A stretch of 64,000 nt of DNA from Protoeuglena noctilucae. Its lineage: Eukaryota. This document shows, piece after piece, positions 1 through 62,518 of the stretch. The notes beneath the pieces are model-generated. The model was not told where the DNA came from. It searched no databases and was given only the letters and a program-made list of their open reading frames with translations. Each line of letters opens with the position of its first letter. The stretch's first letter is position 1. The translations under genes were made by a program, and so were the position numbers. The DNA lies in contig OY253668.1 in assembly GCA_958009085.1 (NCBI GenBank), positions 1,240,001 to 1,304,000 of the forward strand. The letters are read 5' to 3'.

Positions 1-1655
1 CGACCCGAACGTGCAGGCGTCCGGAAAGGCGAGAGCTGGGAGGGAAACGAACGCTTTATCTGTTGCAAAGGTGGTTGCGACCCACCACCCTGTGTCGGCG
101 TTCGACGGCCCCCACCCTGGCCCGCATGCGCAGATGGGGAGTGCGGGGCGGGGAGTGCCAATCGGTGCCATGTTCGGGAGCGGCGGTGCGAAGGAGAGCA
201 AGAGCCTCTTCGGCTCGTCGTTCGCCAACGCAAAACCTGCCCGCGATCTTGTGACGGGGCCGAGCGCCCTGCCGAGCGACAACGGCAACATGCCGCCCTC
301 CTCCGCGCCCGGCGCACGCGTCGACAACCGGCCCACCGTCAAGGTGTCGCAGGAAAGCATGCCGGCTGTCCGGCCGACCGCCCTTCCGGCCGCCGGGGCT
401 TCCGACCCTGGGACCAAGGTCTCTGCCGCGGCTGTCAAGGACGAGCCCTCCACGCCCGTGGCCATCCGCACCGGCATCACCGCCCTCCAAGCCTCTCTGC
501 CCGGAGAATTGCAGTGAGGCTTGCTTGCCCGCCGGCCCCTCGCATGGCCGGCCCGTGCCATGCAAGCCACCCTGGGCCTGCCCCTGTCCCCTTGCAGGAG
601 CCTCTTGGCGTGGCGGAACCCCGCTCAGACCATCGTTGTGCTCGGTCTGTGTGGGCTGGCGCTGGCCGTGATCCAGTTCGTGGCGTCTGGGGGCCTCGGT
701 ATCTCGCTGGTCGAGGGGGTCGCCTACGTCCTCCTCGCCCGCCTGGCCATGGGGTTCGTGTCCGCCACGCTCGGCGCGTCTTCTCGCGACAGCGCGCAGG
801 TCTGGGACGCCACCATCGACTGGGCCAGCAGCAGCCTCCGCAGCGTCTGCCAGGGGTACGAGACGGCCATCCACAACCCCAACCCCCATGCCACGCTGGC
901 CTTCACCCTGGCCCTCTGGGCCGTCGCCGTCGTCGGCCGCGTCCTCCGCCCCCACCACGTCGCCTGGCTCGTGCTCGGCGTGGCCTTCGCGGCCGCCCCC
1001 GCATGGGCCCGCTTGCACCGGGTGGTCAAGTGCGGATGGTCCTTCGCTGCGGAGGCCCTGGACCATCAGATGGAGGCGAGCGCAGCGCCCTGCATGTGCC
1101 TACTCAGTCAGAGTGCGGGGCACTCTGCTTCACCGCGCCACCTCTATTCATTCGCTGCACCCACCCCCCTCGATTTCTTGAGGTCCCACTAACGATGAGC
1201 CCGCGGTGTGATCCCTCGCAGAAGATGCAAATCACCCGCGGCAAGCGTGCCGTGGCCCTCGTGGTGGCCCTGGCCTTCTTCTGGCTGTACGTCGGGTGGG
1301 TGCACCGCGCGGTGTCTCTCCTGGTGGCCCTCGAGCTCATCCGGTGCCAGATGACCCCCCAGGAGGCGAAGAGCATGATGGAGACGGTGGGGCCCGTGGT
1401 GAAGAAGACCGTGGGGGACGTCACGAGCGTCATGAAGGCGTGGACGCCCCGAGGCAAGACGTACATGACGCCCGCCCCCAACCAGGGCTCCCTGGTGACC
1501 GACGCGGCTCTCCCGGCATGCCTACGACGACAAGCGAACGAGGGCTTGTTCGTTCGGCAAGTGGCCTTAGGCGCGACAGACCTTCGCGGGCCTCCTGCCT
1601 GCAGAACTTTGGAGCCGCAGAAGAACACCCGATGTTTAAAACCAAGGGGCAGTGA
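1..1655 (+). CDS. Reticulon-domain membrane protein (5' end outside window)
   Basis: After intron 514-597 the frame reads QSLLAWRNPAQTIVVLG (reticulon LLxWRxP motif), followed by two long hydrophobic hairpins. GC-AG intron 1076-1221 joins HQME|KMQITRG. The last exon NFGAAEEHPMFKTKGQ* is inferred. Confidence 0.7.
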
Positions 1656-1845
1656 GGGCTGCGAGTACAGCAAGCAGCGACCCCTGACGTCCCTGTCACG
1701 TGCCCTGCCGCGATCGCCACCGAGCGCAGCCACTGGTTGGGGCAGCACCATAGCCTAGGGCTGGCGGGGGGCTTTCCGCGGCACCTTCCTCGTTCCCCTC
1801 TGGCCCTACCGCGACAAGCTTGAACCAACTTCAAAGCGCGGTTGG

Positions 1846-1850
1846 TGTAA
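1846..1850 (+). promoter_or_regulatory. Candidate TGTAA polyadenylation signal (chlorophyte type)
   Basis: TGTAA lies downstream of the reticulon stop, in the short gap before the convergent kinesin. A 5-mer is weak evidence alone. Confidence 0.35.
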
Positions 1851-1877
1851 CACCTGACTAGCCACCCAGCCGTATCG

Positions 1878-4366
1878 TCAGATGCGCCCCAGGCTCGGGC
1901 CCCTCGCGGGCTTCCCGACGCCCGGCTGCCCCAGCTCCCGAGCCGTCTTCTTCGCGGAAGGCACCTGGGCAGCCGCTCCCCTCCTCGCGCCCCCGTTCGC
2001 CTCCCTCAGCGGCGCCCCCGCGATCCCCGTGATTCGCTCCTCTGCCTCCACTGCCGCCTCATGCACCGCCTTGGCCGCCTTGCCCAGGGGCTCCGCGCGC
2101 AGCATCATCTGCCTGCTGCGCCACTTGCCCATCGACACCGACTCGTACACCGTGTGCTCCAGCTCCCGGCGCTCCTGCTCCCGCGCCTCCTTGGTTTCGT
2201 CGTCCCCGCCACCGTCGGCGTCCTCGCCCCCGGGCCGCTTGAACAGGCGTGTCAGGATATTCCCCAGCTTCGAGAACAGCGCGTAGTCTTCCCGCAGGTA
2301 CCGATCCACCTCGGCCATCGCTTGCCGCGTCATCTGCGCCTCCTTGGCGATGGCGCCCACCTCGTGACGCATCCGCACCGCCTGCTCGCGGTAGCCCTCC
2401 ACGACACCCCGGAGGTCCACCATGTCCCCGGGCCCTGCAATTGGAGGGACAAGCGTTTCAGGCTCAAGTCCTCGCACGCCTGGCGATGGGGCAGGCATCA
2501 CCGCGCTGGAACGGCCGCCCCGGCGCTCGCCTTCGAGGGGCCCGAACTTGATCCGGTAGAGCTCGGCCTGGCGCGCGAGGCGCTGGCGCTCCGTGTGCAG
2601 GGCGGCCAGCTCCTCGCGCAGCTGGTCGATCTGCGCCTCCCGCTTCTGCAGCAGCTCGTCCATGCGCGTGCCCCCGTACCCGACGTGCACCTTGGGCCGG
2701 TTCCGGATGAACTTGGCGCGCGTGCCGAATCGAAGCGTGCTGATGGTTTCCGCCACGTTGGCGGAGGCGGGGGAGCAAGCGACGATCAGGCACGCACGGG
2801 ACGTCCCACCCAGGGAGTCCTGCAGGATGCGCGTCAGCTTCGAGTCCCTGCGAGGACGAAACGCCACCTCGAGGTTCCAGCGAAGTCGCACGCCGCGGCC
2901 CGCTTGGTCGGGTTGGCCGAGCGCGACGTGGCACAAGCGCCGCCCGGCACGCGCCTGTAGGGGACGAAGGTGGCCGCCTTGTCCGTGAGGGCCTTGATGA
3001 CGAGGCCCAGCGCGGAGAGGGACTTGTTGATCAGCTTGGCCTCCTCGAGCCGCTCGCCCGTGGCACCCGTCTTGCCCACCATCTCGCTCCCCGCCAAGTC
3101 GACCAGGAAGAGCTTGCCGGTCTTGGCAGTCAGGTCGCGGCGGCTCTTTTGCACCACCGTGATCATCATGCACGCGTGCGAGCGAGACGAGTCCGCGTTC
3201 ATCTTGGTCGCCGCCTGCAGAGGCGCGGGCAAGGGGCGGTGGGTCGGATTACGGGCAGGGCAGCCTATGGTGGGAGATGAGCCCAACGCCTCGGACCGCA
3301 AACAACGCGTCGATGCTCACCACGTGGCGCATGGCCGACCCTTCCGCCGCCACCCGCAGGAGCTCGGCGTCGCTCTGGACTTCGAGCTCCGTCGCCCCGT
3401 CCACGTACACGCCCCGGTTCAGGTCCACGCGGATCTCCAGGTTGTTCTTTTGCTGCTGCCGGTCCAGCAAACAGCGGATGCGCTCCATGTAGATCTCCAC
3501 ATAAGACACCTGCGGTGGCCCGGTCCACGCGCCATGGTCGATGCATCGACCGGCCACCTCGCAAGCGAGGTCCTTTGGAGAACCGCTGCTGAATGCACGC
3601 GGCTGGCTCCAGCCTATCCCGGCTGCACCTTGATGGTGAAATCGACGTCCTCGGGGGCGCTCTCGACCGCGTCGAAGATCTGCTGGACCGCACGGGGCAT
3701 AATTCCCTCCGTATCCTCGTCCCGAGCGCCCATCGCGCCTTCCATCGTGTACGTCTTCCCGCTGCCCGTCTGTCCGTACGCGAAGACGGTCGCGTAATAG
3801 CCATCGAGGACGTCGGCCACGAGCTGCCGCGTCGTCGCATCGTAGACGTCGGCCTGGTTCGCCGCGGGCGTGAAGACCCTGTCGAAGGTAAACCGGTACT
3901 CGTCGCGGTCTCCACGATACTCCTTCAGGCCCTTGACGTTCACGGACACGCCCTTCCCCTCCTCGTCAAAGTCGACGCAAATGGTGCTGCTCCGCTGCTC
4001 CGAAGCGTTGGGCGGCCGGAAGCGGGCGACCACGCTGCGACAAGAACCCGGGGGACCTCGGGGTGATCGAAGGAAGGGCGGAGAGCGGGCGCAGGCGCGG
4101 CGCCCAAATTGAATCGACGACCGGGCACTTCGGCATGTGGTGGAGCCCAGGAGGGACGGCGACCCGCCAGGCCCGGCCCCGGACCGTCCCAGTGGGACTC
4201 CGAAGCCAGAGGAGCACGCCGGTCACCTCACGGAGTCTTTGCGGCTGAACTGCCGGTCCTCAGCCTCGATGTCAGCCCCGGCCCCCTCGGGAGGAGTGCC
4301 CGTCCCGTCCCGGCCCGACGTGGACGGGACCTCCCCCAGGAGGAAGGACCGGCCACGGAACGACAT
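1878..4366 (-). CDS. Kinesin motor protein (N-terminal motor, kinesin-1-like) with coiled-coil tail
   Basis: Motifs [19 protein letters not shown]-loop [35 protein letters not shown] and [18 protein letters not shown]. Introns include 4035-4226 (GT-AG) and 2848-2954 (GC-AG). Confidence 0.95.
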
Positions 4367-5149: not shown

Positions 5150-6275
5150 ATGCGCGTGCTTCGTGGTCCTCGCCGCTGCCAGGTGACGGCCCTGCTCCTC
5201 TCGAGCGTGGCGAGCCAGGTCCTCCCCATGTCTGTGGGAAGAGCGTCGCTGATGAGATCGCCTGCCGCCCGCAGCGCGACGCCGGCATGGGCAGCGGCCG
5301 CGAGCAAGGCCGTCGCTGCGGCCAAGTCGACGGCTGTGGCCGCGTCCGCCTCCGCGCCCTCCAACCCCCTCCACGGCATCCTGTCCTTCGTGCTCCACCT
5401 GGACAAGCACCTGTCACACATCATCACCACCTACGGCACCGCCACGTACGCCATCCTGTGGGCCATCGTGTTCTGGTGAGGCCAACGGCAGCACCTGCCG
5501 CGTGCGTGAGGACACACGACCCTCGTGGATGAGCGGCTTCTGCGCCCCTGCAGCGAGACGGGTGTCGTCGTCCTGCCCTTCCTCCCCGGCGACTCCCTCC
5601 TCTTCGCCACGGGCGCCTTGGCTGGCATGGGCAAGCTGGCCGTGGGCCCTCTCGTGGCCGTGTATCTGTCGGCGGCCGTCCTGGGCGACGCGGTCAACTA
5701 CGCCATCGGGTCGTGGCTGGGGCGGGCGGCGATCGAGAGCGGCAAGGTCAAGCGGGAGTACGTGCAGGCGAGTGGCTGCGCGTGGGGCTGGAAGGCGCGT
5801 CTCGCCCGCGCCCTCGCGCTGGGATTGGTTGCACCTGCCACCGCCGCACGCCGGTCCGCCCCCAGAAGACGGAGGGCTTCTACGCCAAGCACGGGGCCAA
5901 GACGGTGGTGCTGGCGAGGTTTGTGCCCATTGTGCGCACCTTTGCGCCATTCGTCGCCGGGGTCGGGAGCATGGAGTACCGGTGAGCCGATTTGCGGGGG
6001 CGAAACCTGCGACACTGATCTGCGCCCCCGCGCCTGGCATTCAAGCCTCCTGCGCCCCTCGCACTTGCAGGGAGTTTGCGACGTACAACGTGCTCGGCGC
6101 CGTGGTTTGGACGGCGCTGTTCGTCGGGGCTGGCTTCACCTTTGGGAACCTCCCCGCCGTGCAGCACAACTTCACGCTCGTCGTCCTGGCCATCATCGCC
6201 GTGAGCGTGTTGCCTGTCGTGTGGGAGATCATGCAAGCTAGGAAGGAGGCAGCGAACCCCCCCGCTGCCGCATGA
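5150..6275 (+). CDS. dedA: DedA/VTT-family membrane protein with Ala/Ser-rich leader (start uncertain; an upstream exon is possible)
   Basis: Motifs [61 protein letters not shown] and [12 protein letters not shown] across at least three introns, one GC-AG (5768-5865). Confidence 0.93.
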
Positions 6276-6395: not shown

Positions 6396-7629
6396 ATGGC
6401 GTCGCGCTCGCTCCCCCCGGACACGCCGGGACAGGGCGACCCTAGCTGCGTCGTGGAGCTGGTGGGCCCGGGGCGTCTGGGCGAAGAGTGCTCATCGTAT
6501 TCCATGTTTGTTGGAAAGGTGAACTACCCGCGACGCTTGGCAGCTGAGGAAGCGCGCAGGGAGGCTGAAAAGCGCCGGGACGGTCCAACCGTCCACGAAA
6601 GCACACCATGGCGCACCTGCAGGTCGAGGCCTACCTCCGGCTAGCCAGGATCCCGTTCAAGGTCACGATGTCCAAGGCGAGACCGTGCTCGAGCTACAGG
6701 CAGGCTCCGCGCCAAGCTAACGGCTTCTTACTGAGCTCTAAGCCTCTGCTGCCCCGTGCAGGGTCCTCTGCGCGGCCCCAAGGGAAAACAGCCCTACATC
6801 ATACACGGGAAGGTGAGGCTGCTATGTTTCTGCATTCTGCTTTGTGAGCGGGCCGCTACCTCGTGGAAACAGGCCGAGCGAGTGCGTAGCTGTTGCGGTG
6901 CTGTTTTGCGGTGCTGTTTTGCAGAACACGGTCGGCGACAGTGAGCTCATCATCGCCTATCTCAAGGCCGTATACCCGGACCTGACGAGTCGGGTGCCCT
7001 CGATGGAGACGGGCCCTCCGCTCGCCACCGCAGCTGCAGCCAGGTGCTGCGCTGAGGCGGAGGTGCAGCTACACCCGCGCAGCTGCGGACCTGTCCCGCC
7101 CCTTCTCATAAGCGCCGACCCTGCGATCCGCAGAAAAGTCGCGGAGGACTCGCTGTACTTCCACCTGCTCTTCTTCCGGTGGCTAACCCCCGCTGGGTGG
7201 CGGGGCATGCAGCCCCTCTTCGCCTCGGCGGGGGTGTGGGCGCCGATGGTAGGGGGCGTCATGCGCAGTGCGGTTCAGAAGAACCTGCACGGCCAGGGCA
7301 CCTCACGGCACAGCCCCGCCGACATCATGAGGCTCGCCAAGGCGGACATCGACATTCTGGCGGGCCTCCTGGGCGGCCAGCCCTTCTACGGGGGAGCGGC
7401 GCCGTCGCAGGACGACTGCGCCGTCTTTTCGTGCCTGGACCAGCTCCTCTACGGCATGCGGGCCGGCGCGGAGGACGCGGCCGCGTACGTGGAGCGGCAG
7501 CCGACGCTGTGCGCGTACACGGATCGCATGCGGCGCCTCCTGTTCCCTCACGTCGTCGAGGGGCGCCAGCTCGCCGACGGGACGCAGTTCCCCATGGCGC
7601 TGGCGCAGCAGCCCTTGGCGTCCTTGTGA
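6396..7629 (+). CDS. Metaxin/FAX-like glutathione S-transferase-fold protein
   Basis: Motifs SMFVGKVEAYLRLARIPF, GPKGKQPYI, VGDSELIIAYL, EDSLYFHLLFFRW and LLGGQPFYGGAAPSQDDCAVFSCL across four introns. Confidence 0.85.
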
Positions 7630-8414: not shown

Positions 8415-11400
8415 ATGGGCGTCCGCATGCGCAGGCGGCCGGGTGCCACCGCCCTCGCCGCTGCCCCTGCCGCGAGGATTTTGGCGGCCCTGCTGTGCCT
8501 GCTGGCAGCCACGTGTGCCACAGGGCAGCCGAGCGCGAATCTGTCGACCTCGAACATCACGGACACCTCCGCGACCCTCGTGTTGTCGGTGCCGGCGGGG
8601 GCCTCCTACACGAGCGTCGCCACGGTGGCCGTGGTCCCCCAGTCCCTCGGGGTCCCCGACAGCTACACCTACTCGCTGACGACCTGCTTTCTCAATTCTG
8701 GCGACGCCACGCAGACATCCTGGTCCACGCAGAACGTTTTAGGCTGCGACCGCACGGCCCCCATCTCCCCCGGGAGTTCTGCTAACGTGACGATGACAGG
8801 ACTGAGCCCGGGGAGCTCCTATAAGTTCCTGGTTCTGGCCCAAACGCCCGAGGTGAGGCACTGCGCGGGGGATGTGATGTCGAAGAGAGGGTGCATGTAC
8901 CCGTAGAGAGCCCATCCTTGCGCATTACGAACCCCATGATTGGGTGATACCCAGACCCGGGCTTGCCATCCTTGCTCATCACGAACCCGCCTGCCGTGGC
9001 GACTCGCAGATCGTGGGGCTGCAGTGCAACACGTGGCACCCCCAGTCGCCCGTGTGCCTGAAGACCAGCGCGATGCTGTCCCAGGAGTTCACCACGACCA
9101 ACACGGGAGCGGCCCCGGCCACTACGGCCTCGGCGGCACCCCCGCCCCCCTTCAACGTCCACGCCCCCACCGTGGCCATCACCGGCCTCGCGCCCACGGA
9201 CACGAGCGTCACCTTCACGCTCAACGCGACTGCCGTCGCGGCCAGCGTGACCTACGTCGTCGTGCAGGGAGGCCAGGTGTACTCGGCCACGGACAACTCC
9301 TTCGACATTGCCTCGTGCCTTGCCAACACCTCCGACGTGCCCCACAGCTCCATCATCGCCTGCAAGGTTGTTCTGGCGTCCACGGGCAGCCCGGCCACAG
9401 TGACCGTCACAGGCGAGCCACGCCCTGCCCAGCGGCTCTGCGTGGCCCAGGGAACAGGCAGTCTGGGGCCAACGCTCACGTCGCCCCCGCTTCGTGTCCT
9501 GCAGGCCTCAACCCCGGGACCACGTACGCCGTCGGGGCTCTGCCACAGGACCCTAGCGCTGCGGGACAGGTCTGCCAGCCCACGACCAACCCGTCCTCCG
9601 CCGCGTGCGTCAACACCGGAAACGCAGCGACGGCGAGCTTCACCACCACGCAGAGCCCGCCCCCGCCCCCTCCGAGCCCGCCTCCCCCGCCTCCGCCGTC
9701 GCCTCCTCCGCCCAGCCCCCCGCCCCCGCCCCCCAGCCCGCCGCCCCCCAGCCCGCCTCCCTTCTGGTCTGGCGCGCCGGTCGTGAAGCTGACGGCGGCG
9801 GCTGCGGGCGACTCCTCGGCGACGCTATCCTTCGCCATCAGCAATGGCGACGCGACGGTGCGGTACGTCGTGCTGCGCAACTCCGTCACCTTCCCGAGCG
9901 GCTTCAACGGCTACGATATCGCCACCTGCCTCACCAACTCAAGCACGTTCGTCTCGCCCAACGACATCATCGCCTGCGGGGCCACCCCGTCACGTCCGGC
10001 CACACCGGCACCGCCACCGTCACGGGCCTGACGCCCAACACCATCTACGACGTCCTCGCGCTGCCCAGGCCCCCATCGTCTTCGGGCAGGTATGCGACCC
10101 CACCACCTCCACCACGTCTGGCGCGTGCCTCCTCACGGGGGTCTTCGCGTCCACCACCGTCACGTCCGCGCCCGCGCCCCCGCCGCCCAGCCCGCCGCCG
10201 CCCCCTCCGAGCCCGCCCCCCCCGCCCCCGCCATCGCCCCCTCCCCCGCCCCCCCCGCCCCCGCCCCCGCCGTCCCCTCCTCCCCCGCCCCCGCCCCCCT
10301 CGCCGCCTTCGCCGCCTCCGCCCCAGGCGTGGTCGCTCCCGCAGGTGAAGCCCAGCTGCAACGCGCGCCTGCTGCCCGCCCCACGCACCTCGCCGCCCCG
10401 ACCGCGTCCCCTGGCCCATTTCTGCGCAGATGAAGCTGACGTTTGTCTCAGCTTCAGACAACTCGATAACCATTCGTGTGTCCCTGGACGGCGCCAACCC
10501 CGGCATCGCTGTCTCCTGGGCGCTCCTCAAGGGTACGGCGCCCGTGCCCTCCGGGGACGAGGTGTACCGCATCGTTTCGTGCTTCAAGGACTCGACGGCG
10601 GTGTCTCAGAGCGACCTCGTCAACTGCGGCTCCAACGTCGTGGGCAGCTCCAAGACCCAGGACATCTCCATCAACGGCGTGCAGGCCGGAATGGAATATA
10701 TCATCGTGCTGCTACCCCAGCTCGTGAGATTTTTTACAGGGTCAACCAGAGGCACCCATGCATGCCAACACGCAGGCTCTCACCGTGTCTGCTATCGCCC
10801 TCTGCCCGCAGTCGTCCGTGGCGGGCTCCGTCTGCGATCCGGTCAACGACCCCTACTCCGCGGCCTGCCAGGGCACCGGCGCCATGGCCGTGCTCACCAT
10901 CACCACGGGCGCGCCATCCACGCCTTCCAGCACCGCCATGCCCTCTGCGTCGCCCGGCTCCACTGCGGGCCCCGCCTCCACGACCCCCGTGCCCGCCACG
11001 ACGCCTGCCGCGTCGCCCACCACGCCCTCGTCGACGTCGGCCACCACCTCGACAGCCACGCCGTCGTCTACGGGCACGCCGTCTGGGTCCCCGACTCCCA
11101 CAAGCACTCCCGCGACAGTCAGCGTCCAGCAGTCTGTATCACGCTGCCGGCGCTCGACCCCAACGTGGTGTCGACCAGCCCGTCGTTGGCCCAGACCATC
11201 CTCGACGTGCAAGTGGCAGTGGCCAACAGCGCGGGCGTCGACCCGACCATCGTGCACGTCACGTACGTCATCACTCCGCGATACGCCACCTCACGGCGGC
11301 TGAGCCAGAACCAGACTCCTGCGCCGGTGGGTACCGACGTGGTCATTACGGCGTCCCTGAGCGTCGCCACCGCCGCCACCGCCCAGCGGCTCCAGAACCA

Positions 11401-12178
11401 ACAGGCAAACCTCACCGCGTCGGTTGCTACGGCCGCGCGCAAGGCCTTCGGAGACGGCGCCGTCAGCAACGTCACGGTGTCGCAGCCGCGCGTCGTGCAG
11501 CCTGCAGCGCCGCCCACGGATGCCGGGAACGCGCCCAGCACCTCGGGCCAGACCTCCCAGGCGAGCGGGGCTTTCAGGGGACAAGCAGCACAGTTGCCAT
11601 GCCACAAGCCAAGGCCGCCGAAAGCGACCTGCGCTCCTCTCCCCTCCCCCTCACACACGCAGACTGTCACGATTGCCGGCGCAGCGGCAGGGTGTGCCGC
11701 AGTGGCTGCTGTCGGGGCTGTCGTGGCCACCGTCGTCATCCGCAGGCGGTGGAAGAAGCGGTGAGCAGCGGGGGACGCAAACACAGCTCAGCGCGCCTGC
11801 GACCTTGCCTGGGGTGGCAGACCGATGCTTCTGAGCTTGCGTGCCGTCAGCTGGCCCTCTCCTCCCCCACGCAGGCCGCGCAGCGACAACGACCCTCTGG
11901 CCGACTGCCCCTCCGCGGCGTCGTTCAAGAGCTCCCAGGGAGCGCCGGAGCCCGCGAGGATGCTCAGCGTCTCTGGGAAGCGCCGTTCTCACCGTGGCGT
12001 CGTCATGCCCCTGGAGCGCTACATGATGGACGGCGACGCCGCCAGCGACAGGACCACCGACGCCGACACGGCCGCAGCGGACGGCGAGGAGCTCGAGGAG
12101 GGACTGTCCCCGGGCTATATCGCCAATCCCACTCCCCTGTCACCGCCGTCACCGCCGCGCGACCCCATCCCCGTCTGA
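8415..12178 (+). CDS. Type I membrane glycoprotein: signal peptide, four Cys-containing FN3-like domains, Ser-Pro (extensin-like) rods, Ser/Thr stalk, TM helix, cytoplasmic tail; apparent frameshifts
   Basis: Hydrophobic leader ILAALLCLLAATCATG; four repeats with VTGLxPxTxY-like motifs; SPPPP tracts; TM segment IAGAAAGCAAVAAVGAVVATVVI followed by RRRWKKR. Single-base frame breaks near 9987, 10065 and 11136. Confidence 0.8.
9654..9760 (+). repeat. Ser-Pro(n) coding low-complexity repeat 1
   Basis: C-rich tract encoding SPPPPPPSPPPPPPPSPPPPSP... Confidence 0.9.
10171..10323 (+). repeat. Ser-Pro(n) coding low-complexity repeat 2
   Basis: C-rich tract encoding PAPPPPSPPPPPPSPPPP... Confidence 0.9.
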
Positions 12179-28933: not shown

Positions 28934-29053
28934 GTCTCCCCTCGCTTACGTGTCGCAGGGGGCGATACGCAGGGTGGGATTCGGCAGGGGCCCGAGGGAA
29001 GAGAACAGAGCGGTGGAGATAAGGGATCGCATAATGGGTCGGCGCCGACGCTA

Positions 29054-43067: not shown

Positions 43068-43930
43068 ATGGCGACCGCTGCGGTTGGACTGCCCCTCCAG
43101 CGCCGTGCTGTCGCTGATTGGGCGTGTAACGGACGGATTCCAGGGCATGCCGCGCGGGCCTGCAGGTGGGGCGAGGCGCTACCGCATCGTAGCGGGCGCT
43201 GTTCATGTATGCGAGGCTCATTCCCACTCGCGCGTCGGCCCCAGGTTCTTCGGAGCCTCCGTCGTTCGGGGGCCCGCGACGCCTCTGGGGCGCAGCCTTC
43301 TGAGGGCGTCGAAGCAGGACGGGTCGGTCATCGACAGGCGAGTGCAGCGGGACCGGCCGAGCGCGGGGCGGCGCCGTGCGTTTCTTTGTCCGATCTTTCA
43401 AACGGCAGCATCGCGTTCCTGGCCTCGCAGGCCGACCACGGAGAAGGGGAAGAAGGTGGACAAGAGCAAAAAGTTCGGGCCCATCTACAAGGTCATGCTT
43501 CACAACGACAACTTCAACCGGTGCGCGGCAGCGTCGGGAATCAGTCAAGCTGGGCTGGCGTGCGCGGACTGGGCCGCAGCACAGGCCACGTGCCGAGCTC
43601 TCATCCTCGTCCTCGGATTCCATCCCCAGGCGCGAGTACGTGGTGCAGGTGCTGCTCAAGGTCATCGACTCGATGCAGGTGGACGACGCCGTGAACGTCA
43701 TGCAGGAGGCGCACGAGTCGGGCATCGCGCTCGTCACGGGTGAGGGCCGGGAAGGGACCTGGGCGAAAACTCCGCCCTGCCCGCGATGCGTGGCGTTCCC
43801 AAGAACCCGTGGCTTGGCTTTTCCCGCAGCCGTGGTTCAAGAGGATGCGGAGAGGTACTGCCAGGGTCTTCGGAACGGCGGCCTTATTTCGACCATCGAG
43901 CCCGACACGGCGCCTGGCGGCAGCAACTAG
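43068..43930 (+). CDS. CLPS1: Plastid ClpS1 adaptor (N-recognin of the Clp protease)
   Basis: YKVMLHNDNFNRREYVVQVLLKVI..AVNVMQEAHESGIALV..QEDAERYCQGLRNGGLISTIEP; four introns. Confidence 0.95.
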
Positions 43931-46062: not shown

Positions 46063-47646
<1,584 letters not shown>

Positions 47647-50239: not shown

Positions 50240-50305
50240 AACGGAGCGGCGCGTGTGCCCTCGGCGCTGCAAGCTGCTAGATGCATGCCCCGTCATGTCT
50301 CAAGG

Positions 50306-50310
50306 TGTAA
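50306..50310 (+). promoter_or_regulatory. Candidate TGTAA polyadenylation signal for DCAF11
   Basis: TGTAA starts 67 nt after the stop codon, next to the stop of the convergent gene. Confidence 0.35.
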
Positions 50311-50316
50311 GTATGT

Positions 50317-52495: not shown

Positions 52496-53684
52496 ATGAC
52501 GTGCGTCGCCCGCGCTCCCGCGCCCCACGCGGCCCTCGCGCGGGGTCGCTCCCTGGCCATGTCATCGCGGGTCGCCAGCGTCAGCAGGCGCACAGGCGAG
52601 CGGCTCGCACTCGCGCACGCAAACCCCACGCGCAGCTCCAGCCATCCTCACGCCGCCGTGCCTGCCCCGTGCAGTGGCAGCGCGTGCTGCGGACCTGGAC
52701 CCCGACAACACGAACATTCTGGTGTGCGGCGGTGGCGGCGTGGCCCTGGAGACCGTGAAGCTGCTCAAGGACATGGGGTCGTGGGTGTGGATGATGCAGC
52801 GCCATGACGAGCGGAAGTCGCAGATCGAGAAGTGGTTCGCGGTTTGGGTCAAGGGCGATGCCATGGACAAGGCCTCGGTGGACAAGGTCTTCCAGCAGAT
52901 CGAGGGCGGGCAGGCGAGCGCGGCGCGGATGGGGCCGACCGTCCGGCCCCCTCTGCTCGACTGGCGCTTGGTGCCGCTCTTGCCGGCGGCAGACGCGAGG
53001 TCTCCGTCGCTCCGCAGGTGGACGCGGTGGTGTGCACGCTCGGCGGCACCCTCCAGGACTACCGGGTCGACTCGGCGGGCAACATCAACGTGATGGAGGC
53101 GGCGGCCAAGAACAAAGTGAAGAAGTTCATCCTGGTCACGTCCATTGGGTGCGGGGAGTCGCGGTCGGCCATCTCCGAGCAGGCGGCCAAGGTAAGGGCG
53201 GAGCGTGGGGCATGGGGATGCGGGGCGGTCAGGGTGGGCGGAGTTAGTGAGCAAGCGATGGCACGTCTGGGTGCAGACGCTCGGGCCGGTGTTGGACGAG
53301 AAGGACAAGGCGGAGAAGCGCCTGTGGGAGCTGGCGGGTGACATGGAGGTGGTGATCGTGCGCCCGGGGGGTCTCAAGTCGGACGAGGCGACGGGGAAGG
53401 GCATCCTGACGGAGGACCAGCAGTTGGTGGGGGCCATCACGCGCAAGGACACGGCGCGCATGGTGGTCAAGGCCCTTTTCTCGAAGAAGACAGGTGAGGA
53501 GGGAGCAGGGGTGTGCGGGGGTGGTGGACTAGTGTGGGTTGTGGAATGGGAAGCGCCAATGGCAGGGACGGGGTGACTTGGAGAGCGTATGCGTTCCGCG
53601 CTCACAGGGGGCAAGGTGCTGCACGCGCTGGACCGGGACATGACCACGCCCGCTGACCGGCCCGTCACCGTGTTCGAGTGCTAA
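52496..53684 (+). CDS. NAD(P)H-binding Rossmann protein (atypical SDR, NAD_binding_10), probably plastid
   Basis: Motifs ILVCGGGGVA, VKGDAMD, VDAVVCTLGG, GNINVMEAA, FILVTSIG, KDKAEK and VIVRPGGL; two GC-AG and two GT-AG introns. Confidence 0.9.
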
Positions 53685-53793
53685 AGGCGACACTTGGGGC
53701 AGGGAAGGGACAGCTGGCGGGGTCGTAGATGCCTGACGCCGTTTCAAGCAGGACAGGACAGCGCTGCTCGCCCGTCTGTTCTAGAACCTCAGT

Positions 53794-56403
53794 CTAGGGC
53801 CACCAGCTCGCGGTCTGACCCGGGGCCTCTTCCAGGAAATCCGGAAAGGGCCTTCCTCCCTGAGGATCGTTCCGGGACTCCCTGGGCGGCTTGCGGCCAC
53901 GCGTCTCGGCTCCTGAGGCCTCGTCCCTGCAGTCAGCCGGGTGTTGCTCTGCCGGGTTGGTACAGTTGACCCAAGGCACGTGCCCACGCGCCAACCAGCC
54001 CATGCAGCGTACCAATGGATGAACATGTCCCTCCCGCCCTCGTCTCACCCGAACTTGCCATCGACGTCCATGCCATCCGGCAGCCTCCTTCCCACAATTG
54101 AGCTGTCATATAAAGGGACAGACACCGTCTTGCCCTCCTCCCTCATCGACGCACCCTGCCGTCGCCCTGCATCCTGGGACCTGCCTGAGAAGGTCCCACC
54201 CCTGCCCTGTCCAGCAGACCCCGCCAAGTCCTCCTCATCAGAGTAACGAGTACTCGCGTTGCGGCGGTACCCCGCGCCCCCTGCACCCCTGCCCTCGACC
54301 CCTCCCCACGCCCGCTCTTGTTCCCTGCCCCTCCCCACCTCGCCCGCTGCTTCCCGCGCGACTCCACGGCCCCGGCCCTCCGATCCCCGGTCAGCCGCAG
54401 CCCCGTATGCTTCGGCCCGATACGCAGGGGCTCCGGCCATCTCCCGCCCGTTCGGCACCAACTCAGGCTCCCTCCGTCGCTCGTCCACGCCCCGGCGCGG
54501 GACCGGACGCGACCTGGGCTCCGGCAGAGCCATGGGCTGGCGTGCGGGGGAGCGCTGGCGCACCTCGGAAAGGTCCGCAGCCCCGCGAGCCCGCCGTGTG
54601 GCCTGAGATCCGTACGTGGCCTGCCACTCAGCCATGCTCTGCGAACGAGAAAGCGCGGGGCATGTCAGAGCTGACACGGAGTAAGGATGTGCTCAGCAAA
54701 GTGACTGCGCAGTAGATGCCATGCGAACGCACTTGGAACCACTGCTCGAGTTGGGCAGCGTAGACGGGGTCGTCCGCCGCAGCCCTACGCATGCGGTCGC
54801 GGACGTCGGGGTCCGAGTAGTCGACGGGCCGGTCGCCGACTTCGACCGATGACGACGCGAACCCGAGCCTCTCCACGATGCCCACCGTCAGCTGCTCCAC
54901 GTGCAGCAGGGCGTCCGCTGCGGGCACGTCATGCAGGCACCTCTCATGAGCAGCCAACCTGGCAGCGATTACATAAAACGGCTAGGCCGCTTTCATGTGG
55001 CAGCCATTGAACGCCCTTGCAGCAGTTTGAAGCATGTGTGCCCTCACCCTGCACGATGACGCGGCGGCGGCCCTGCGGATTGATCCCGGCGGCCACGATG
55101 CGGTCGGCGCCGAGGCGGAAGGTGCTGACCAGGGCATCGGGCACAAGGGGCGACCCATACGTGTCGTACACGAGCTCCAGCACCGCGCCGTCGTCCGGGC
55201 GGAACGAAAAGTCCCGCACGCGACCCAGGAAATCTCCTCGCTCTGCGGGAGTGGGCCAGGCTATGGCTGGTCGATGCGTGGACCTATGCGGTCGGAAGAA
55301 GGGCCTGGGAGACGTTGCGACCTGCAGTGCGGTTGTGCGCGGGCGCGCGTCGTGAGCCACGCATGTCAGCAACCACCTCGCGGCTCCTCACCCGTCACCA
55401 CTTCGAACCCCACCAGGCGCAGGAAGCCTTCTGAATCAAAGGGCGGCTGCACCGCACTCTCGTCGTGCACCAAAATCACATCCCCGATCTGGCGCAGCGA
55501 AGACAGCAGGACCATGTCCTCCTCTTCCGCCGAACTGCGCCCGGAGAGGTCGGATGCGGTGGGCGGAGGCAACAGTGCACCCCTCGCCTGCGTGTGCGTC
55601 GCTCTGACCACCCCAACCCACCAGCACGGCCGCCCCCCGGCAACGCCCTGTCCCCCGCGACACGCACCTGAGACCTGCGATGTTGAGCAGGCCACCCGGT
55701 CCGATGAACACGGCCTCGACGCACCAGGTGGACGGGTTGATGCCGAGGTGCTGGGCCGTGCCCAGCTTGACGCCCGACGTCCGCGTCACCAGCTCCTTGC
55801 CCACCACGGCGCTGCGCGGCAGCACTACGCGACCGGAACGGTCGCGACCGGACGGGGAGGACCCGCGCGGGGGGCGCCGCGGGGCCGAGAGCGCCAGAGC
55901 CTCCGACCCCAGCCGGGGTGCCTGGGCCCGCGCGTCGTAGGGATCCGTCGACGCGGTGTCCACGCGGACTCGCGGAACTCTCCTGGGCGCGTCGCTCGCG
56001 TAGAAGGCCCGGCCGGAGCTGCGGAGGCGTCATTAGCGGGCAGCTTGAGGCGGAATGCACTGCCGGAGCCCATCGCGGCCCCCCTACAAGCCGCGATGCC
56101 ACATCCTGAGCAACGACCGCCGTCTCTGACAGTTGCGTGTCGCGGCGCAAGTTAGAGAACGGCTCGCCTGCTTGGCGTGGAGGGCTGCCGCATCTCCTCG
56201 CGAGGCAGGGCGGCCTCCGCGCTGCCCGCTGGCCCAGGCTCGGGGGCTCGCCCCGGTTGGGGTCTGCTGAAAGAGGCGTCAGAAGACTCCCTTCCTGTCA
56301 AGCGGCGCGCCGGCCCGGCGGCGGTGCGGCTCGCACGGGCAGGACGATGACCCAGATGACAGGGCCGCCGCCCTGCCAGCGAAAAGCCGCAGGCCGCGCT
56401 CAT
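53794..56403 (-). CDS. Tandem PRC-barrel protein (cyanobacterial type), probably plastid
   Basis: RSAVVGKELVTRTSGVKLG, LLSSLRQIGDVILV, LVGFEVVT|ERGDFLGRVRDFSF and YGSPLVPDALVSTF; leader joined by GC-AG intron 56019-56167. Confidence 0.85.
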
Positions 56404-56654
56404 GACCCTTCCCGGAAACGCATAAGCGAAGCAACGCGCAGCTAGCCAGCGGAAACGGTCGTGTCTGGGGGCCAGCACCCTTGTTCAGAGCCGTTTTATA
56501 CAACACTCAGCACACAGCTGGCTTCCTTCGGAGAAGCCCAAGCATGGAGCAACTGATCCTGGTGCTGGAGATCAGCCCTCTTCAAAGGAGCAGCTGACTG
56601 TCAGGGCCACGGCCTGTGCGGCACAAACGCTTGCCAGTGCCACCGCCACCGCGG

Positions 56655-59600
56655 CTACCACTGGAAGGCGGCGAAGTCAGCGTGGCACGAGGGGTCGTGG
56701 AGCCCCTGCGGCGGCGCGTCGTAGAACGCCACGGGCACTTCAGGCTTGAGCTTCCGGCCATGCTCGACCTCGAACATCTCTGCGGGGACAGTCGAGAGCA
56801 GGGGAGCCCACGTCGCGTGCAACAAGCGTGACCAGGCAGGACATGGATGCAGCGGCAAGCGGCGCAGGCATCCGAAGCATGCTACATCCCAGCACTCCCG
56901 CCTTGGCAGCCCGGACGCCTGGGCCGCCCACTTACTGGCATAGGTGAGCCGCAGCAGGGGCTCCAAGTCCGCCTCCGCCGTCTTGGCGCGGTCCGTGAGG
57001 TCCTTCTGCAGGACCTGGTGCGCGAAATGCGCCACCTGGGGGCACGCGTGCCGCACGAGGGCCGCGAGCTCCCACAGCGAACTCTCCACGGCCCGGCTCT
57101 TTGCCGGGTCCTCCTCGTCTTCCGCATACGGGTCCGTCCCCGCGCAGCCCGCGCCCTCGTCGCCCGCGCTGTCCGGGAGGGGCTCCCACAGCACGCTGCC
57201 CTCGTGGAGCTTCGGGTGCGTGACCAGGTCTCCAACCGTCTTGCCAGCGGGCACCCGGTGGAGTAGGACGTTGCAGGCGGGGTGCCGGCGGACGACGTTG
57301 TTGATGAAGGCGATGCAGACCATGGCGCTGAGGGCGGGCGGGCGAGGGACGCGCGTGAGGGAGCTCACGTGTGGATGGCAGGCGGGGGCGGCGAGCAACC
57401 GTGGTCAGAGGCAGGGAGGGCGACGAGTGCAGCGGCGACGGTGGCATCGCGACAGAGGTATCTACTGCAGCGTTGTCTGGCATAGGCCTGGTCTCACCCG
57501 TGCGGCGGGGCGGAGAGCGCGAGCCGGCCAAAGCGTTTGGCGAACGCCGCGGCCGTGTAGGCGGGCACCATGGGCGAGGAGAGGAAGACGTCGGCAAGCT
57601 GGAAGAACTGTGCGCGGTTCTTGATCAAGAAGACGGCCGGCTTCAGGAGGCTGTAGAGGCGCTGGAAGAACTGGGGGTACTCGAGGCCGTGCTGCGGGGT
57701 GGGGAGCAAAGCACGGCACGATATCGTCAGGGCACCGGGCAGACGTATGGACTTTTTGTTTCGCATGGCAAGACATATCTTACTCGTGCAGAGTTTGCCG
57801 GCGCAAAGACCCCGTGACACAGGCACTGCCATGGCACGGCGGTCGCACAGCATGCAGACTGCTTGACCCTCTGCATTGCGCAGCCTCGCCTTGGTGACCA
57901 GGGTGAAGATGCCATGGAGGGCCAGCATGCCGATGATGCCCCCGCGGCTGAGAGAGGCCGTGAGGAAGTCCGACAGCAGGAGCGGGTTGGGCATGTTGGG
58001 GAGGACCGTGGAGTGCACGCACAGGAGGACCTTCCTGCAAAGGGACGGAATATGTGAAAGCAATTGTCACAGGGCCCCAGTTGCGCGACGGCCCGCACCA
58101 CGTGGCAGACTCGCATGTCCCCACCTGTAAATGTCCCCAGGCAGCGGCACGCGCAGGAAGGCCAGCCAAGCCGCCGCGAACTCCTTGACTTGGTTGATGG
58201 GCGTCGCCCACTGCGCTCTCCGGAGACCCTCTGCCGCTCCCTCTTCGCGCTGCCTGCGTGCCATCCTTGCAGGGGGCAAGTCCTCAGTGAGCTGACGAGC
58301 ATGCAGCACCCCAGCGGCGAGTCAGTGGCAGCAAGGCTTTGCCAAGGCCAGAGTGCCACGCTCGGCAAAGCAGGGGCGGACCGCCCGGCGGCATCCGCAG
58401 CATCGTGTGGGCATTTGCACCCCCCTGCACCCGGGTCACCGTTTCCTGCGCTTCCTGGCGCTCTCGTCCCGGTCCGCCGCGCCCTCCACCGCCCCCGACT
58501 CGATGGCGCCACACCACGATGTGAGCGCTGCGTCTGCCGGGAGCGCCTCCACCCTCCGCAAAACGTCAAACGCCGTCCGGACCGCGTCGTCAGAAGTGGG
58601 AGCCTGCGGTGGCTGAGAGGTCGGCTTGAGTTCCGGTCCATGCATGCACGAGGTGATGGTGTCGCAGCAACCACTAACGGCGCTGGCCGCCTCGCCTGCA
58701 GCCCTGCCCTGCTGGGCGGGGCGTCGGCGAGGGACTCGGAGAGATGCCGGATGGTCCGCAAGGTGTAGTATCGCACGTCGGCGTGGCGCAGGTACCTGCA
58801 GGAGTGAACGCCAGCGGCGGCGTTCAAGTCTGTGGCAGTTGAAGCCCCAGATGTAAACAAGTAGCGCATAGCTTGGCCCCACGCACCGCGCCACCAGCAC
58901 CCCGACGACGTCCGACGACGTTCCTGGGGACTTGAGTACGTGCAGGAGAGCCTGGCAGAAGAGGTCGCTCCTGCAAGCGCGTGAAAGCCTCTCGGTGTGC
59001 GGGTGGCCACCACGTCAGCCACGCAGGCAAGAGCTGCTACGTATCGCAAAGAAAGCAGCGGCCATTCGCTTACCGAAACTCCTTGTCCACCTCCCGCCGT
59101 GCCACCTCCATGACGGCAGTGAGGGCCGCCACCTGCATCTCCACCTCCAGGGAACGCTGCAGCACCTCAAGGCACCGCGCCTTGAAGTCCTGGTACTGCT
59201 TCCGCAAGTACACCACGAAGCGGGGCTCCTGAAAAAAAGATGTGTCTCCTAGTAACGATGGGCTCGGCACAGACGGCCGGGCACCGACCTGCGCGCACGT
59301 CGCCCTCACCTCAGGGTCCTTGACGCCGTCCTTGCGACGGGGCGGGTCCACCACGAGGTGGCCACGAGCGATGGCATCCACGAAATAAGTCCGCAAGCCC
59401 TGGGGAAACGGCGGCCGAGTCATCTGCTTCACAGTTGCTGCCGGCGCCCCCATGCGAATTATTTGGGCAGCCCCGGCGACGCACGAACCTCCATTGCTGT
59501 CACTGCCTCTCCCGCCGCCTCGAAGACGGCTCCCGCGTCGACGAAGGCGAGGGCCCGGGGCAAAAGCTTGACGCGCCCGACGGCGTCGCCCCCCAGCTGC

Positions 59601-59775
59601 GGCCGCGGGAGATACACGCGTCGCGATTTGCACCGCCTTCCTATCGTCGTCACGGTTCCGCTCCGCATGAGCCACTCGCCTCCTGCAGCAGCCCGCGCAC
59701 GCCGGAGGACGTCGCGCTCGGCCCCGGCGGCTCGGTGACCCTCTGCCCGAGCTCGCGCCCCCCTGCCCGCGCCAT
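56655..59775 (-). CDS. NOC4: Nucleolar complex protein 4 (CBF/Mak21 family)
   Basis: Motifs YLRHADVRYYT, AWLAFLR, VLPNMPNPLLLSDFLT, HGLEYPQFFQRLYSLL, PAYTAAAFAKRFGRLAL and DPY..EEDPAKSRAVESSLWEL. Confidence 0.93.
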
Positions 59776-60400
59776 GCTGATGATATCGTTTGTGCAATAG
59801 CCGCACTCGGGCTTTGCTGACGGGGCGCGCACGCGAGGAGGACAGGCCAAGAACCCCGCAAACGTGTCCTGCAGGCCTGCGCAAGAGAAATCCACTGAGC
59901 TAGCTAGCAGATTCTACGCCGGAACTTCAGAAGCTCATGCTGAGGCCCTGGGCTTACGCAGGATGCCCGAGCCGCTGCAGCACGTCACGCTGGCCGTCTG
60001 ACGGTGGGCTCAGGAAAAGGAGGACATAACTCTCACTGATGCCTGTGCAGATACGCTTTATTGGCTAATGAGCATCCGGCGCTATTTCAAGAACTGGGCA
60101 AGGAAGTATCTTGTCTGAGATCCCGTGCACTGCCAAAGCATCTAAAGGAATTTGCCCAATCCCGGGCATCCCTACCCGATTTGCGGAAGTGTGCCGCGCT
60201 CATTTAGTTACTCGATTTGTTGGCTATTGCCACTGCTGTCTCGGAGACTCCAGCGGGTTCCGGGGGCGGTCCGCAGGCAGGTGAATGCAGCTGCCCGCGA
60301 CCGACGGCGGTGGCACTGGGCTGTGGATCGCAACAACACAGTCGCTCGACACCCTCAGGCCCGCGCTGCCGTGCTCGCGCATCCAGCCAAGCGAGCCAAG

Positions 60401-62518
60401 ATGGCGTTCGTGGAGTACCAGTGGATCGTCGGCGTGGGCGCCGTGCTCTGCGTCTTCATGGCCTACGGCATCGGGGCGAATGACACGGCCAACTCGTTCG
60501 GCACGAGCGTGGGCTCGCGCGCCCTCACCATCCGCCAGGCCCCCCTGGTGGCGGCCGTCTGCGAGATGGCAGGGGCGCTGGGCCTGGGCGCCAACGTGAC
60601 GGACACCATCCGCGGGGTGCGTTTGCTTACGCAGCGGGGCGTGCCGCACGAGGGCTGTGTCGTGGATGACCTGGATTTGCTGCAACCGAGCTTGCAGGGC
60701 ATTCTAAGCTACGAGGATTTCACGAGTGCCCCCGAGGTGCTGATGTTCGGCATGATGTGCTCGCTGGCGGCCGCGGGCATCTTCATGGTCTTCGCCACAC
60801 TGCTGGAGATGCCCGTCTCCACGACCCACGCCGTCATCGGCGCCATCATCGGCTTCGGCCTCGTGGCGCACGGGAAGGACGCCGTGCAGTGGGTCGCGTG
60901 GGGGAAGCCCGGCGAGTTCCCCATCCAGGGCGTGGTCGGGATCGTCATTTCGTGGGTCTTCTCGCCCGTGTGCTCGGGGATCCTGGCCTCCTTCTTCTTC
61001 CTCTGCGCGCGCACCTTCGTCCTCCGCCACAACAACTCGTACATCCGCTCGTGGATCTCCCTCCCCGTGTGGGTCTTCCTCACCGTCTCCATCGACGTGC
61101 TCTTCATGGTCATGAGCGGCGCCAAGGCGAGCGTGGCTGAGGTCGGGCTGTGCGCCGCCTGCACCTCCTCGTTACGCCGCCCCACCGCTGCCACGCCTTT
61201 CCGCGGCCCGCAGCACAGGGCCTCCCGCATCACGACCAACCAGGCCATCGCCATCGGCCTCGGCACGGGTGCTGGTGTCGCGTGCATCGTCGCGCTCCTC
61301 ATCCGGGCCGTCCTCAAGCCCAGGGCGGAGACCGTCTTTAAAGGCCGCATGCAGAAGGGCGAGATCGTGCAGGTCAGGCGCCGCCCATGTGACGAGGTCT
61401 TGCTTTAAACGGGGGTTGGGGTTTCGAACCCTGACACCTGGTTCCCGCACAGCGTCAGGGTCTACCCGCAGCCGCCACTCCCTCTGACCGCGCAGGACCC
61501 CAACAACCCGCACTGGTACGTGTTCGACCAGGCGCGCATCAAGGAGCTGGAGGCGGAGCGCCGTCGCAGCGCGGAGGGCGCCGAGGAGGCGAACACCCGG
61601 GGCAGGCTGTCGTCGGCCGTCAAGACCATCTTCCATGGTCTCGACCAGGATGTGCACGCCGTCGTGGACACGGACGAGCACGTGGGCGCGGTGCACGCGA
61701 CGGCCGAGGTCTTCGACGCTCGGACCGAGGAGTCGTTCCGGTACCTCCAGGTCTTCACGGCCATGTCCATGTCCTTCGCCCACGGTGCCAACGACATCGC
61801 CAACGCCGTGGGCCCCATGGCGGCCATTTACTTCGTCTACAAGAACGGGGTGGTCAAGAAGAGCACGGACCAGTCGACCGAGTCGGCGCTCTACTGGATC
61901 CTGTTCCTGGGCGGCGTGGGCATCTGGCTGGGCCTCGCCACGCTCGGCTACATCATCATGCGCACGCTGGGCGTCAAGGTGGCCAAGATGACGGCCTCGC
62001 GCGGGTTCGCGGCCGAGCTCGGGCCGGCCCTCATCGTCGTCATCGGCTCCAAGCTGAGCCTGCCCCTCTCGACCACCCATTGCGTCACGGGGTCCGTGGT
62101 GGGCATCGGCATGACTGAGCGCAGCCGCGGCGTCAACTACTACGTGCTCCCCCGGATCATCGCGGGGTGGGTGCTCACGCTCGTGGTCGCGGGGGGGGGT
62201 CTCGGCGGTGCTGTTCTCGCTGGGCTACTTCGCCCCCGGCGCGTTCGGCATCCGGGACCGCAACTTCTACCAGGCGCAGCTGCAGCAGTTCGCCGAAAGC
62301 GTCGCGTCGGCTGTGGAGAGCACCGCGTCCCTGCGCACGTCGGCCCACTACGCCCCCACCTGGTCGGCCACGGCCACGAGCCTCAACCGTACCGCGCACG
62401 CCCTGGCCAAGACCCAGGTCGTCAACCGGTTCGAGGAGGCGGGGATGCTCGAGACGGTGCTGGCCCTGCTGACGGACGAGCGGACGGGCGTGTTCCACAG
62501 CTGCCGGCAGTGGGAGTA
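60401..62518 (+). CDS. PTB: PHO4/PiT (SLC20) Na+/phosphate symporter, PTB type; apparent +1 error in the G run at 62191-62199
   Basis: Motifs AYGIGANDTANSFGTSVGSRALT, PVSTTHAVIG, SWVFSP, FRYLQVFTA..SFAHGANDIANAVGP, SRGFAAEL and PLSTTHCVTGSVVGIG. Confidence 0.95.

Follow-up and report, generated by a model that had tools for sequence, protein, structure and literature searches.

Frequent, context-dependent GC-AG introns in a 64 kb stretch of Protoeuglena noctilucae DNA

The 64 kb stretch of Protoeuglena noctilucae contig OY253668.1 analysed here (positions 1,240,001 to 1,304,000, referred to below as the window and numbered from its first letter) is dense in genes and introns, with about four introns per modelled gene. 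Near one quarter of these introns begin with GC rather than GT and end with AG, and the GC donors are concentrated in a single context, an exonic AG followed by GCGAG (AG/GCGAG, with the slash marking the exon-intron boundary). Both the high GC-AG share and its dependence on context are established in the window, and the boundaries of five GC-AG introns are established by RNA (one of them by a loose contig end) and of five more by strong homology. In our view these are probably ordinary U2-type introns, in which a T-to-C change at the second intron position (+2) is tolerated where all other donor positions match, under GC-biased base composition.

A first-pass annotation of the window had listed 24 GC donors. 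Direct reading of the sequence confirmed this observation: on the strands assigned to them, all 23 intervals that it gave start with GC and end with AG, and the donor given without an acceptor, at 24716 on the minus strand, reads CAG/GCGAGG. Its two counts were reproduced as well, in that 22 of the 24 donors start with GCGAG (the exceptions being GCGCG at 2848-2954 and GCAAG at 34054-34173) and 22 follow an exonic AG, with CG preceding the donors at 40982 and 34054. The heptamer AGGCGAG is present in 38 copies, compared with 17.1 +/- 4.3 in 100 dinucleotide-preserving shuffles, none of which reached 38. Modelled donors account for 25 of these copies, counting the hand-added donor at 61127, and the 13 unused copies correspond to about the chance expectation. 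The GT counterpart AGGTGAG is found in 21 copies (8.6 +/- 3.2 in shuffles), of which nine are modelled donors. The unused AGGCGAG copies at 7760, 21696 and 27645 on the plus strand fall outside the coding exons of the model, and some of them could be donors of introns in untranslated regions or of genes missed by the model. GCGAGT opens about one third of the GC introns (T at +6 in 31%), including those at 5768, 23597, 40982, 43338, 47380 and 59597, which places a GT four nucleotides (nt) inside the intron.

Use of GC donors is seen in assembled contigs of the RNA runs X7, X9 and X11, which are metatranscriptomes from one study and were aligned to positions 40900-60899 together with the DNA-like run X2 from a different study. 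The window DNA is also present in metagenome runs, in runs labelled with one organism, and in four metatranscriptome runs of one study. Joint counts refer to 15 joints listed of 43, and all allowed cut positions were enumerated for each listed joint; assembled contigs show the presence of a joint, not splicing efficiency or retention. Every listed joint has one canonical-type solution, which is GT-AG for 11 joints and GC-AG for four. The four GC-AG joints coincide exactly with the claimed introns 43338-43430, 47380-47473, 52596-52674 and 52914-53017, and each is present in three RNA runs and in none of the X2 contigs. None of the four has any GT solution. Three of them (43338, 47380 and 52914) had 9-20 frame-compatible GT alternatives each, yet the GC donor is used, and at 43338 and 47380 the splice site is the GC and not the GT four nucleotides further in. 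The possibility, raised in the first-pass annotation, that transcripts are spliced at nearby GT sites instead is thereby answered for these joints. For a further intron, 41169-41265, an X7 contig ends at 41168 and continues with 15 letters, the first 12 of which are those of the downstream exon from 41266. The claimed sites at 40982, 56019, 57692, 58604 and 59597 lie within the RNA-covered stretch and outside the 15 listed joints.

A second concern had been that the C at +2 is a base-calling error. A single X2 contig spans 40900-60508 with no differing letters and no joint, so that the C at +2 is found in independently obtained DNA data and is not such an error. Runs of two further studies contain all sampled words of positions 22001-32000.

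Exon junctions were also compared with homologous proteins. Profiles were built from fetched homologues, and for each modelled intron all frame-preserving GT-AG and GC-AG variants within 48 nt were scored, together with retention of the intron. Modelled GT introns mostly scored best as GT, so the test is not tilted towards GC. The GC model exceeded the best GT variant by 12-16 bits at 23597 (391.6 bits against 379.2), 57692 (667.2 against 651.5, with 643.2 for the retained intron) and 34914 (708.1 against 695.3), which we class as strong support. At 34054 there is no GT option; the spliced form scored 708.1 bits against 699.1 for the retained one, and a GC donor 9 nt upstream reached 710.6, so that the intron 34054-34173 is supported, with its exact donor less firm. 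In the kinesin gene, position 279 of the Pfam profile falls on the last residue upstream of 2848-2954 and position 281 on the first residue downstream, the split codon being position 280. These sites (2848, 23597, 57692, 34914 and 34054) are the five counted as strong homology. Alignments to NOC4 homologues break off at 57890 and start again at 57694 with the same residue, and green-algal adenylate kinases align without gaps across ...RLRVYQ/EEAGPVEEFY, the junction left by the intron 23597-23699.

Margins were smaller (3-7 bits) at 15015 (618.9 bits against 612.3 for the best GT variant), 12645 (618.9 against 614.8) and 58604 (667.2 against 664.1), and at 59597 the difference of 1.5 bits (667.2 against 665.7) is too small to discriminate. 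The basis at ten claimed sites, 59597 among them, is reading frame and motif. At 5768-5865 the VTT profile extends to position 55 upstream and from position 64 downstream and is thus roughly continuous; a GT donor 6 nt upstream is an alternative. Two intervals are ambiguous as GC introns. For the added candidate 13417-13624, the GC model (618.9 bits) scored below a GT donor 15 nt downstream (622.9 bits). The claimed intron 61127-61213 is 87 nt long, in frame and without a stop codon, with a neutral coding score, and both the PHO4 Pfam alignment and the PDB alignments end in a variable loop of the transporter. A PDB search with the FAD-oxidase exons returned one weak match and none at the junctions, and a search with the short downstream exon of adenylate kinase returned no relevant match; the alignment of the upstream exon with PDB chains stopped at residue 174, short of the junction.

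With a codon model trained on Pfam-matched stretches, we compared the best coding frames on either side of each interval. Removal of the claimed interval links these frames at 24 of 24 sites and does likewise for 13 of the 15 RNA-proven introns. The earlier statement that most of the GC introns are required to restore the frame was nevertheless too strong, because frame-compatible GT-AG alternatives exist within 45 nt at 21 of the 24 sites (none for 34054, 52596 and 56019).

A self-trained gene finder combined codon log-odds, donor and acceptor matrices and a length prior, with GT and GC donors both permitted; the final donor matrices were trained per class and seeded from four GCGAG donors. 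A version without splice matrices found five of the 15 RNA-proven introns and was discarded, and a long-intron version mis-joined exons. The final model comprises 25 genes and 107 introns, 75 of them GT and 32 GC. It recovers 13 of the 15 RNA-proven introns and 23 of the 24 GC introns claimed earlier, and its GT introns match ends of RNA contig pieces near 48517, 49217, 49819, 50799, 51079, 56936 and 57327. GCGAG is found in 25 of the 32 modelled GC donors. About 26 of the 32 GC introns are credible, those with donors at 9650, 9976, 30814, 31045 and 62189 being noise-like, and about 17 of the 25 modelled genes contain GC introns.

As a decoy control, the permitted donor dinucleotides were varied under pooled matrices and a neutral +2 term. 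With GT alone, the finder placed 77 GT introns at a total score of 1833; with GT and GC, it placed 65 GT and 34 GC introns (26 of the latter with GCGAG) at 2093. Permitting GG in place of GC gave 64 GT and 16 GG introns with no motif present more than twice (score 1787), and permitting GA gave 58 GT and 15 GA introns (score 1775), so neither decoy produced a dominant motif or a gain in score. The approximately 26 GC donors exceed this background of roughly 8-15 spurious calls. Taken together with the four GC-AG joints among the 15 listed, the decoy control places the GC-AG share near one quarter of the window introns; the first-pass hand estimate had been 24 out of about 110, to be set beside 32 of 107 in the model.

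Donor context was scored as the number of matches to A at -2, G at -1, purine at +3, A at +4 and G at +5. Five matches were found in 25 GC and 10 GT donors, four in 3 and 48, three in 1 and 18, and two in 3 and 1. The perfect AG/G_GAG context is thus present in 25 of 32 GC donors but in 10 of 77 GT donors, compared with 7 GC and 67 GT donors at four matches or fewer (Mann-Whitney p = 3.7e-7). In the motif-independent subset, supported by RNA or strong homology, the perfect context is found in 8 of 10 GC and 3 of 11 GT donors (p = 0.016). Median intron length is 102.5 nt for GC and 104 nt for GT introns, and the acceptor profiles are alike; in the acceptor of modelled introns, GCAG follows a strong C-rich tract. 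CTRAY was found in the last 50 nt of 18 of 109 modelled introns, with no clear branch-point motif. Among AG/GYGAG donors, 25 have C and 9 have T at +2, a C share of 0.74, compared with 0.66 for C/(C+T) in sense-strand intron bodies. GC content is 0.65-0.70 in all 4 kb bins of the window.

Under the reading that we favour, GC bias of the genome would allow T-to-C changes at donor position +2 to arise and persist. Such a C would cost one contact with the 5' splice-site readers, presumably in pairing with U1 and U6, and would be tolerated where exonic AG is followed by G-C-G-A-G, that is, where the remaining positions fit the local consensus. T and C at +2 would be nearly interchangeable in the perfect context; in weaker contexts selection would remove C and donors would remain GT. 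Mutation pressure is the presumed cause. On this view, the compensation rule published for GC donors (PMC2490688) acts at an extreme base composition. The first-pass annotation had proposed either a relaxed or altered reader or strong GC-biased substitution at +2. The latter fits the observed C share of 0.74 against the neutral 0.66, but a generally relaxed reader is not favoured: under it, the contexts of GC donors should be no stricter than those of GT donors, which is not what the 7 GC and 67 GT donors in weaker contexts show. A quantitative change in the splicing machinery may also be involved.

Several points weigh against our interpretation. The RNA joints are the 15 listed of 43 and derive from runs of a single study; the data are a single 64 kb window, without orthologous introns to polarise the change; and class-specific donor matrices make the contrast in context partly circular, so that weak-context GC donors may be under-called. 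Moreover, Micromonas RCC299, at 64% GC, has 2.7% GC-AG introns compared with 22% in M. pusilla (PMC3033335). The low share in RCC299 despite its GC content indicates that GC content alone is insufficient and that lineage-specific tolerance may be needed.

An altered 5' splice-site reader, through a change in U1 or U6 small nuclear RNA, an RNA base modification, or a change in U1C or Prp8, would likewise make C at +2 acceptable, and GC richness alone would then not yield the pattern. We regard this as unlikely, although it is the alternative that fares best. GC content and GC-AG share correlate weakly across species, and the two Micromonas of similar GC content differ about tenfold (PMC3033335). 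In the perfect context, C at +2 is as frequent in the window as neutral composition predicts and therefore appears to carry very little cost. Confinement of GC donors to that context is, however, also predicted by a standard reader with compensation, and the U1 5' end of Aureococcus and M. pusilla is the canonical AUACUUACCUG (PMC3033335). An Rfam scan of the 64 kb window gave no matches and no U1 or U6 gene. A stronger proposition, about which we are doubtful, is that the spliceosome of this chlorophyte-like lineage no longer distinguishes U from C at +2 when the other positions match, with GC prevailing over GT among the best donors (25 C against 9 T) rather than being a tolerated minority. 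If true, GC-AG richness would have arisen independently within green algae, and the lineage would be a natural system for identifying which features of U1, U6 or Prp8 determine how costly C at +2 is.

It is improbable that GC donors are selectively kept as weaker sites for regulated splicing or intron retention, as has been proposed for mammals, nematodes and plants. GC donors are tied to alternative splicing in other organisms (PMC2490688) and are accompanied by high intron retention in Emiliania huxleyi (PMC4028052), but in the window they are spread over most modelled genes, including those for the housekeeping proteins RPN11, adenylate kinase and NOC4, and the C share at +2 is close to the neutral expectation.

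Still less probable is the view that the GC donors are artefacts, arising from misplaced boundaries with a nearby GT in actual use or from C-for-T errors. It could draw on the frame-compatible GT-AG alternatives, on the roughly 15 false introns that decoy dinucleotides yield in the gene finder, and on the two ambiguous intervals 61127-61213 and 13417-13624. However, it has to contend with the RNA joints and their unused GT alternatives, the homologue profiles at three sites, the identical DNA of X2 and the occurrence of AGGCGAG at twice its chance frequency, and it is already refuted for at least ten sites.

We give almost no credence to a mobile intron family (introner elements) with its own GC donor, or to U12-type introns, from whose donor consensus GCGAG differs; Micromonas pusilla CCMP1545 carries introner elements. 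That strain does have a high GC-AG share (22.2%; PMC3033335), but within the window both readings are refuted, as all-against-all comparison of 35 introns gave chance matches of 9-15 nt only, each intron hitting itself alone, and the U12 branch motif TCCTTRAY was found in 0 of 32 GC and 0 of 77 GT introns.

For three window genes, the named proteins that match best come from chlorophyte green algae (35-70% identity), including Haematococcus, Tetradesmus, Monoraphidium, Raphidocelis, Chlorella and a pedinophyte; Micromonas, pelagophytes and haptophytes are not among them. The literature check that the first-pass annotation had called for places the phenomenon in a known kind, with published GC-AG shares of 14-60% in GC-rich marine algae. 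Shares of 39.6% in Aureococcus anophagefferens, 22.2% in M. pusilla CCMP1545 and 7.7% in Chlorella sp. NC64A have been given in PMC3033335, which terms the origin of abundant GC-AG introns an enigma. Other values are 14-17% for Aureococcus strains and about 14% for Pelagomonas calceolata, with 0.32% in the lower-GC Aureoumbra (bioRxiv 10.1101/2024.10.30.620910), and 56-65%, verified by RT-PCR (reverse transcription PCR), for E. huxleyi (PMC4028052). The window resembles these GC-AG-rich marine algae in its GC content of about 65-70%, a share in the tens of percent, a canonical AG acceptor and short introns, and the published explanation for them likewise invokes high GC. Unlike them, it matches chlorophytes and not Micromonas, pelagophytes or haptophytes, and its share is drawn from one 64 kb window; Aureococcus, moreover, has 0.4-0.9 introns per gene (bioRxiv 10.1101/2024.10.30.620910) against about four here. 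Given the chlorophyte best matches, the lineage is probably a further one among GC-AG-rich algae, and the window appears, from its protein matches, to add a chlorophyte-like lineage to the known kind.

Chlorella sp. NC64A, second in GC content among 61 species, is also a GC-rich green alga with a raised GC-AG share, but the share in the window is about three times its 7.7% (PMC3033335). A literature search for GC-AG reports in green algal groups, in which supplementary tables were not covered, found none beyond PMC3033335. In their main texts, the genome papers on Chloropicon primus, Pseudoscourfieldia marina and Prasinoderma coloniale have no word starting with 'splice'; Chloropicon, with 57.5% GC and 0.5 introns per gene, does not match the window. 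In animals and plants, U2-type GC-AG introns make up 1% of introns or less (PMC2490688, PMC3167603), and outside +2 their donors fit the consensus better than GT donors do, a compensation rule (PMC2490688). The window introns are alike in combining a GC donor, an AG acceptor and a donor otherwise nearer the consensus than GT donors are, but they are about 25 times more frequent and their local consensus has G rather than A at +3 (GCGAG).

Gene finders that allow only GT would mis-predict about a quarter of the introns, touching most genes of the organism; in the window, restricting the gene model to GT costs about 1,400 nt of coding sequence and lowers its score by 260 units. The green-alga-like lineage joins the GC-rich algae with abundant GC-AG introns and provides a quantitative picture, in which C replaces T at +2 at a nearly neutral rate and is confined to perfect donor contexts. 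This bears on the question posed by PMC3033335 of why some GC-rich algae gain GC donors and close relatives do not. The sole 100% matches in protein collections are open reading frames from window DNA, P0009 (181 amino acids, at 22628-23245 on the plus strand) and P0219 (240 amino acids, at 33944-34750 on the minus strand). Both are read-through frames and not spliced proteins, so that intron-encoded residues are carried as protein sequence in public collections.

Among 80 metagenome loci encoding RPN11, the closest to the window gene (46472-47646) are L001 (3658-4645) and L002, with 90% protein identity and a GC content of 0.71-0.73. In both, the first GT intron is retained in the same place; the two later introns, one of them the RNA-proven GC-AG intron, are absent. 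Neither locus has neighbouring genes in common with the window. In three further loci, a GT intron lies about seven residues upstream, at a different position. The gene finder, run on the small sample of L001, L003 and L006, placed few introns and no clear AG/GCGAG donors there.

Table 1. GC-AG introns and candidate GC-AG introns in the window. Exonic letters of the donor are in lower case and intronic letters in upper case.
Interval	Strand	Donor	Class	Gene	Evidence and remarks
1076..1221	+	gag/GCGAGC	GC-AG intron	reticulon-like	sequence, frames linked, gene model
2435..2530	-	aag/GCGAGC	extra candidate, not in first-pass list	kinesin	gene model and AGGCGAG match
2848..2954	-	cag/GCGCGT	GC-AG intron	kinesin, motor domain	seamless Pfam profile
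5768..5865	+	cag/GCGAGT	GC-AG intron	VTT/DedA-domain	frames, gene model
6677..6761	+	aag/GCGAGA	GC-AG intron	GST-like	sequence, frames, gene model
9413..9504	+	cag/GCGAGC	GC-AG intron		sequence, frames, gene model
11561..11662	+	cag/GCGAGC	extra candidate, not in first-pass list		gene model and AGGCGAG match
12645..12783	-	cag/GCGAGC	GC-AG intron	ankyrin-DHHC S-acyltransferase	weak homology
13417..13624	-	cag/GCGAGG	ambiguous extra candidate		GT donor 15 nt downstream scores higher
15015..15182	-	gag/GCGAGC	GC-AG intron	ankyrin-DHHC S-acyltransferase	weak homology; read-through meets stop codon
18399..18492	-	aag/GCGAGC	extra candidate		gene model; low-scoring gene
23597..23699	+	cag/GCGAGT	GC-AG intron	adenylate kinase	strong homology
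24550..24716	-	cag/GCGAGG	GC-AG intron		acceptor from gene model (donor alone in first-pass list); frames linked
25565..25708	-	cag/GCGAGT	GC-AG intron		sequence, frames, gene model
29634..29766	+	cag/GCGAGT	GC-AG intron		stop codon after 12 nt of read-through; one frame-compatible GT alternative; gene model
34054..34173	-	ccg/GCAAGG	GC-AG intron, off-consensus donor	FAD-oxidase-like	no GT option within 45-48 nt
34914..35002	-	cag/GCGAGC	GC-AG intron	FAD-oxidase-like, same as 34054..34173	strong homology
40982..41070	+	tcg/GCGAGT	GC-AG intron	F-box/RCC1-repeat	sequence, frames, gene model
41169..41265	+	cag/GCGAGC	GC-AG intron	RCC1-repeat, same as 40982..41070	RNA loose end (X7)
43338..43430	+	cag/GCGAGT	GC-AG intron		RNA joint in 3 runs
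47380..47473	+	cag/GCGAGT	GC-AG intron	RPN11	RNA joint; RPN11_C profile begins at first downstream residue
52596..52674	+	cag/GCGAGC	GC-AG intron		RNA joint in 3 runs; no GT alternative
52914..53017	+	cag/GCGAGC	GC-AG intron		RNA joint; NAD_binding_10 profile to 60 upstream, from 61 downstream
56019..56167	-	cag/GCGAGC	GC-AG intron	near gene 5' end	gene model, no GT alternative; flanking coding signal weak
57692..57889	-	aag/GCGAGG	GC-AG intron	NOC4/CBF-domain	strong homology
58604..58695	-	cag/GCGAGG	GC-AG intron	NOC4/CBF-domain	weak homology
59597..59679	-	gag/GCGAGT	GC-AG intron	NOC4/CBF-domain, 5' part	read-through meets stop codon
61127..61213	+	aag/GCGAGC	claimed candidate	PHO4 phosphate transporter	gene model reads through

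Pfam searches identified pieces of eukaryotic genes spread across adjacent reading frames of the window, including kinesin, the ankyrin-DHHC acyltransferase, SIR2, an amino-acid transporter, adenylate kinase, RCC1 repeats, RPN11, WD40, NOC4/CBF and the PHO4 phosphate transporter, among others. At 55865, within a modelled exon, and at 42035, the match of the RNA contigs to 40900-60899 breaks off in all three runs, and up to 255 non-matching letters follow; these breaks could reflect a splice missing from the model, a paralogue, or a contig made chimeric at a low-complexity, GC-rich run. In the NOC4 gene, moving the acceptor of the 222 nt GT intron 58218-58439 (minus strand) by 48 nt raised the profile score from 667 to 691 bits, and tblastn places NOC4 homologue residues at 58315-57890; the modelled intron is probably wrong. 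The gene finder also fused the ankyrin-DHHC acyltransferase with an upstream SIR2-domain gene (15698-17282) into a 13-exon model at 12362-17282 on the minus strand, which most likely represents two genes.

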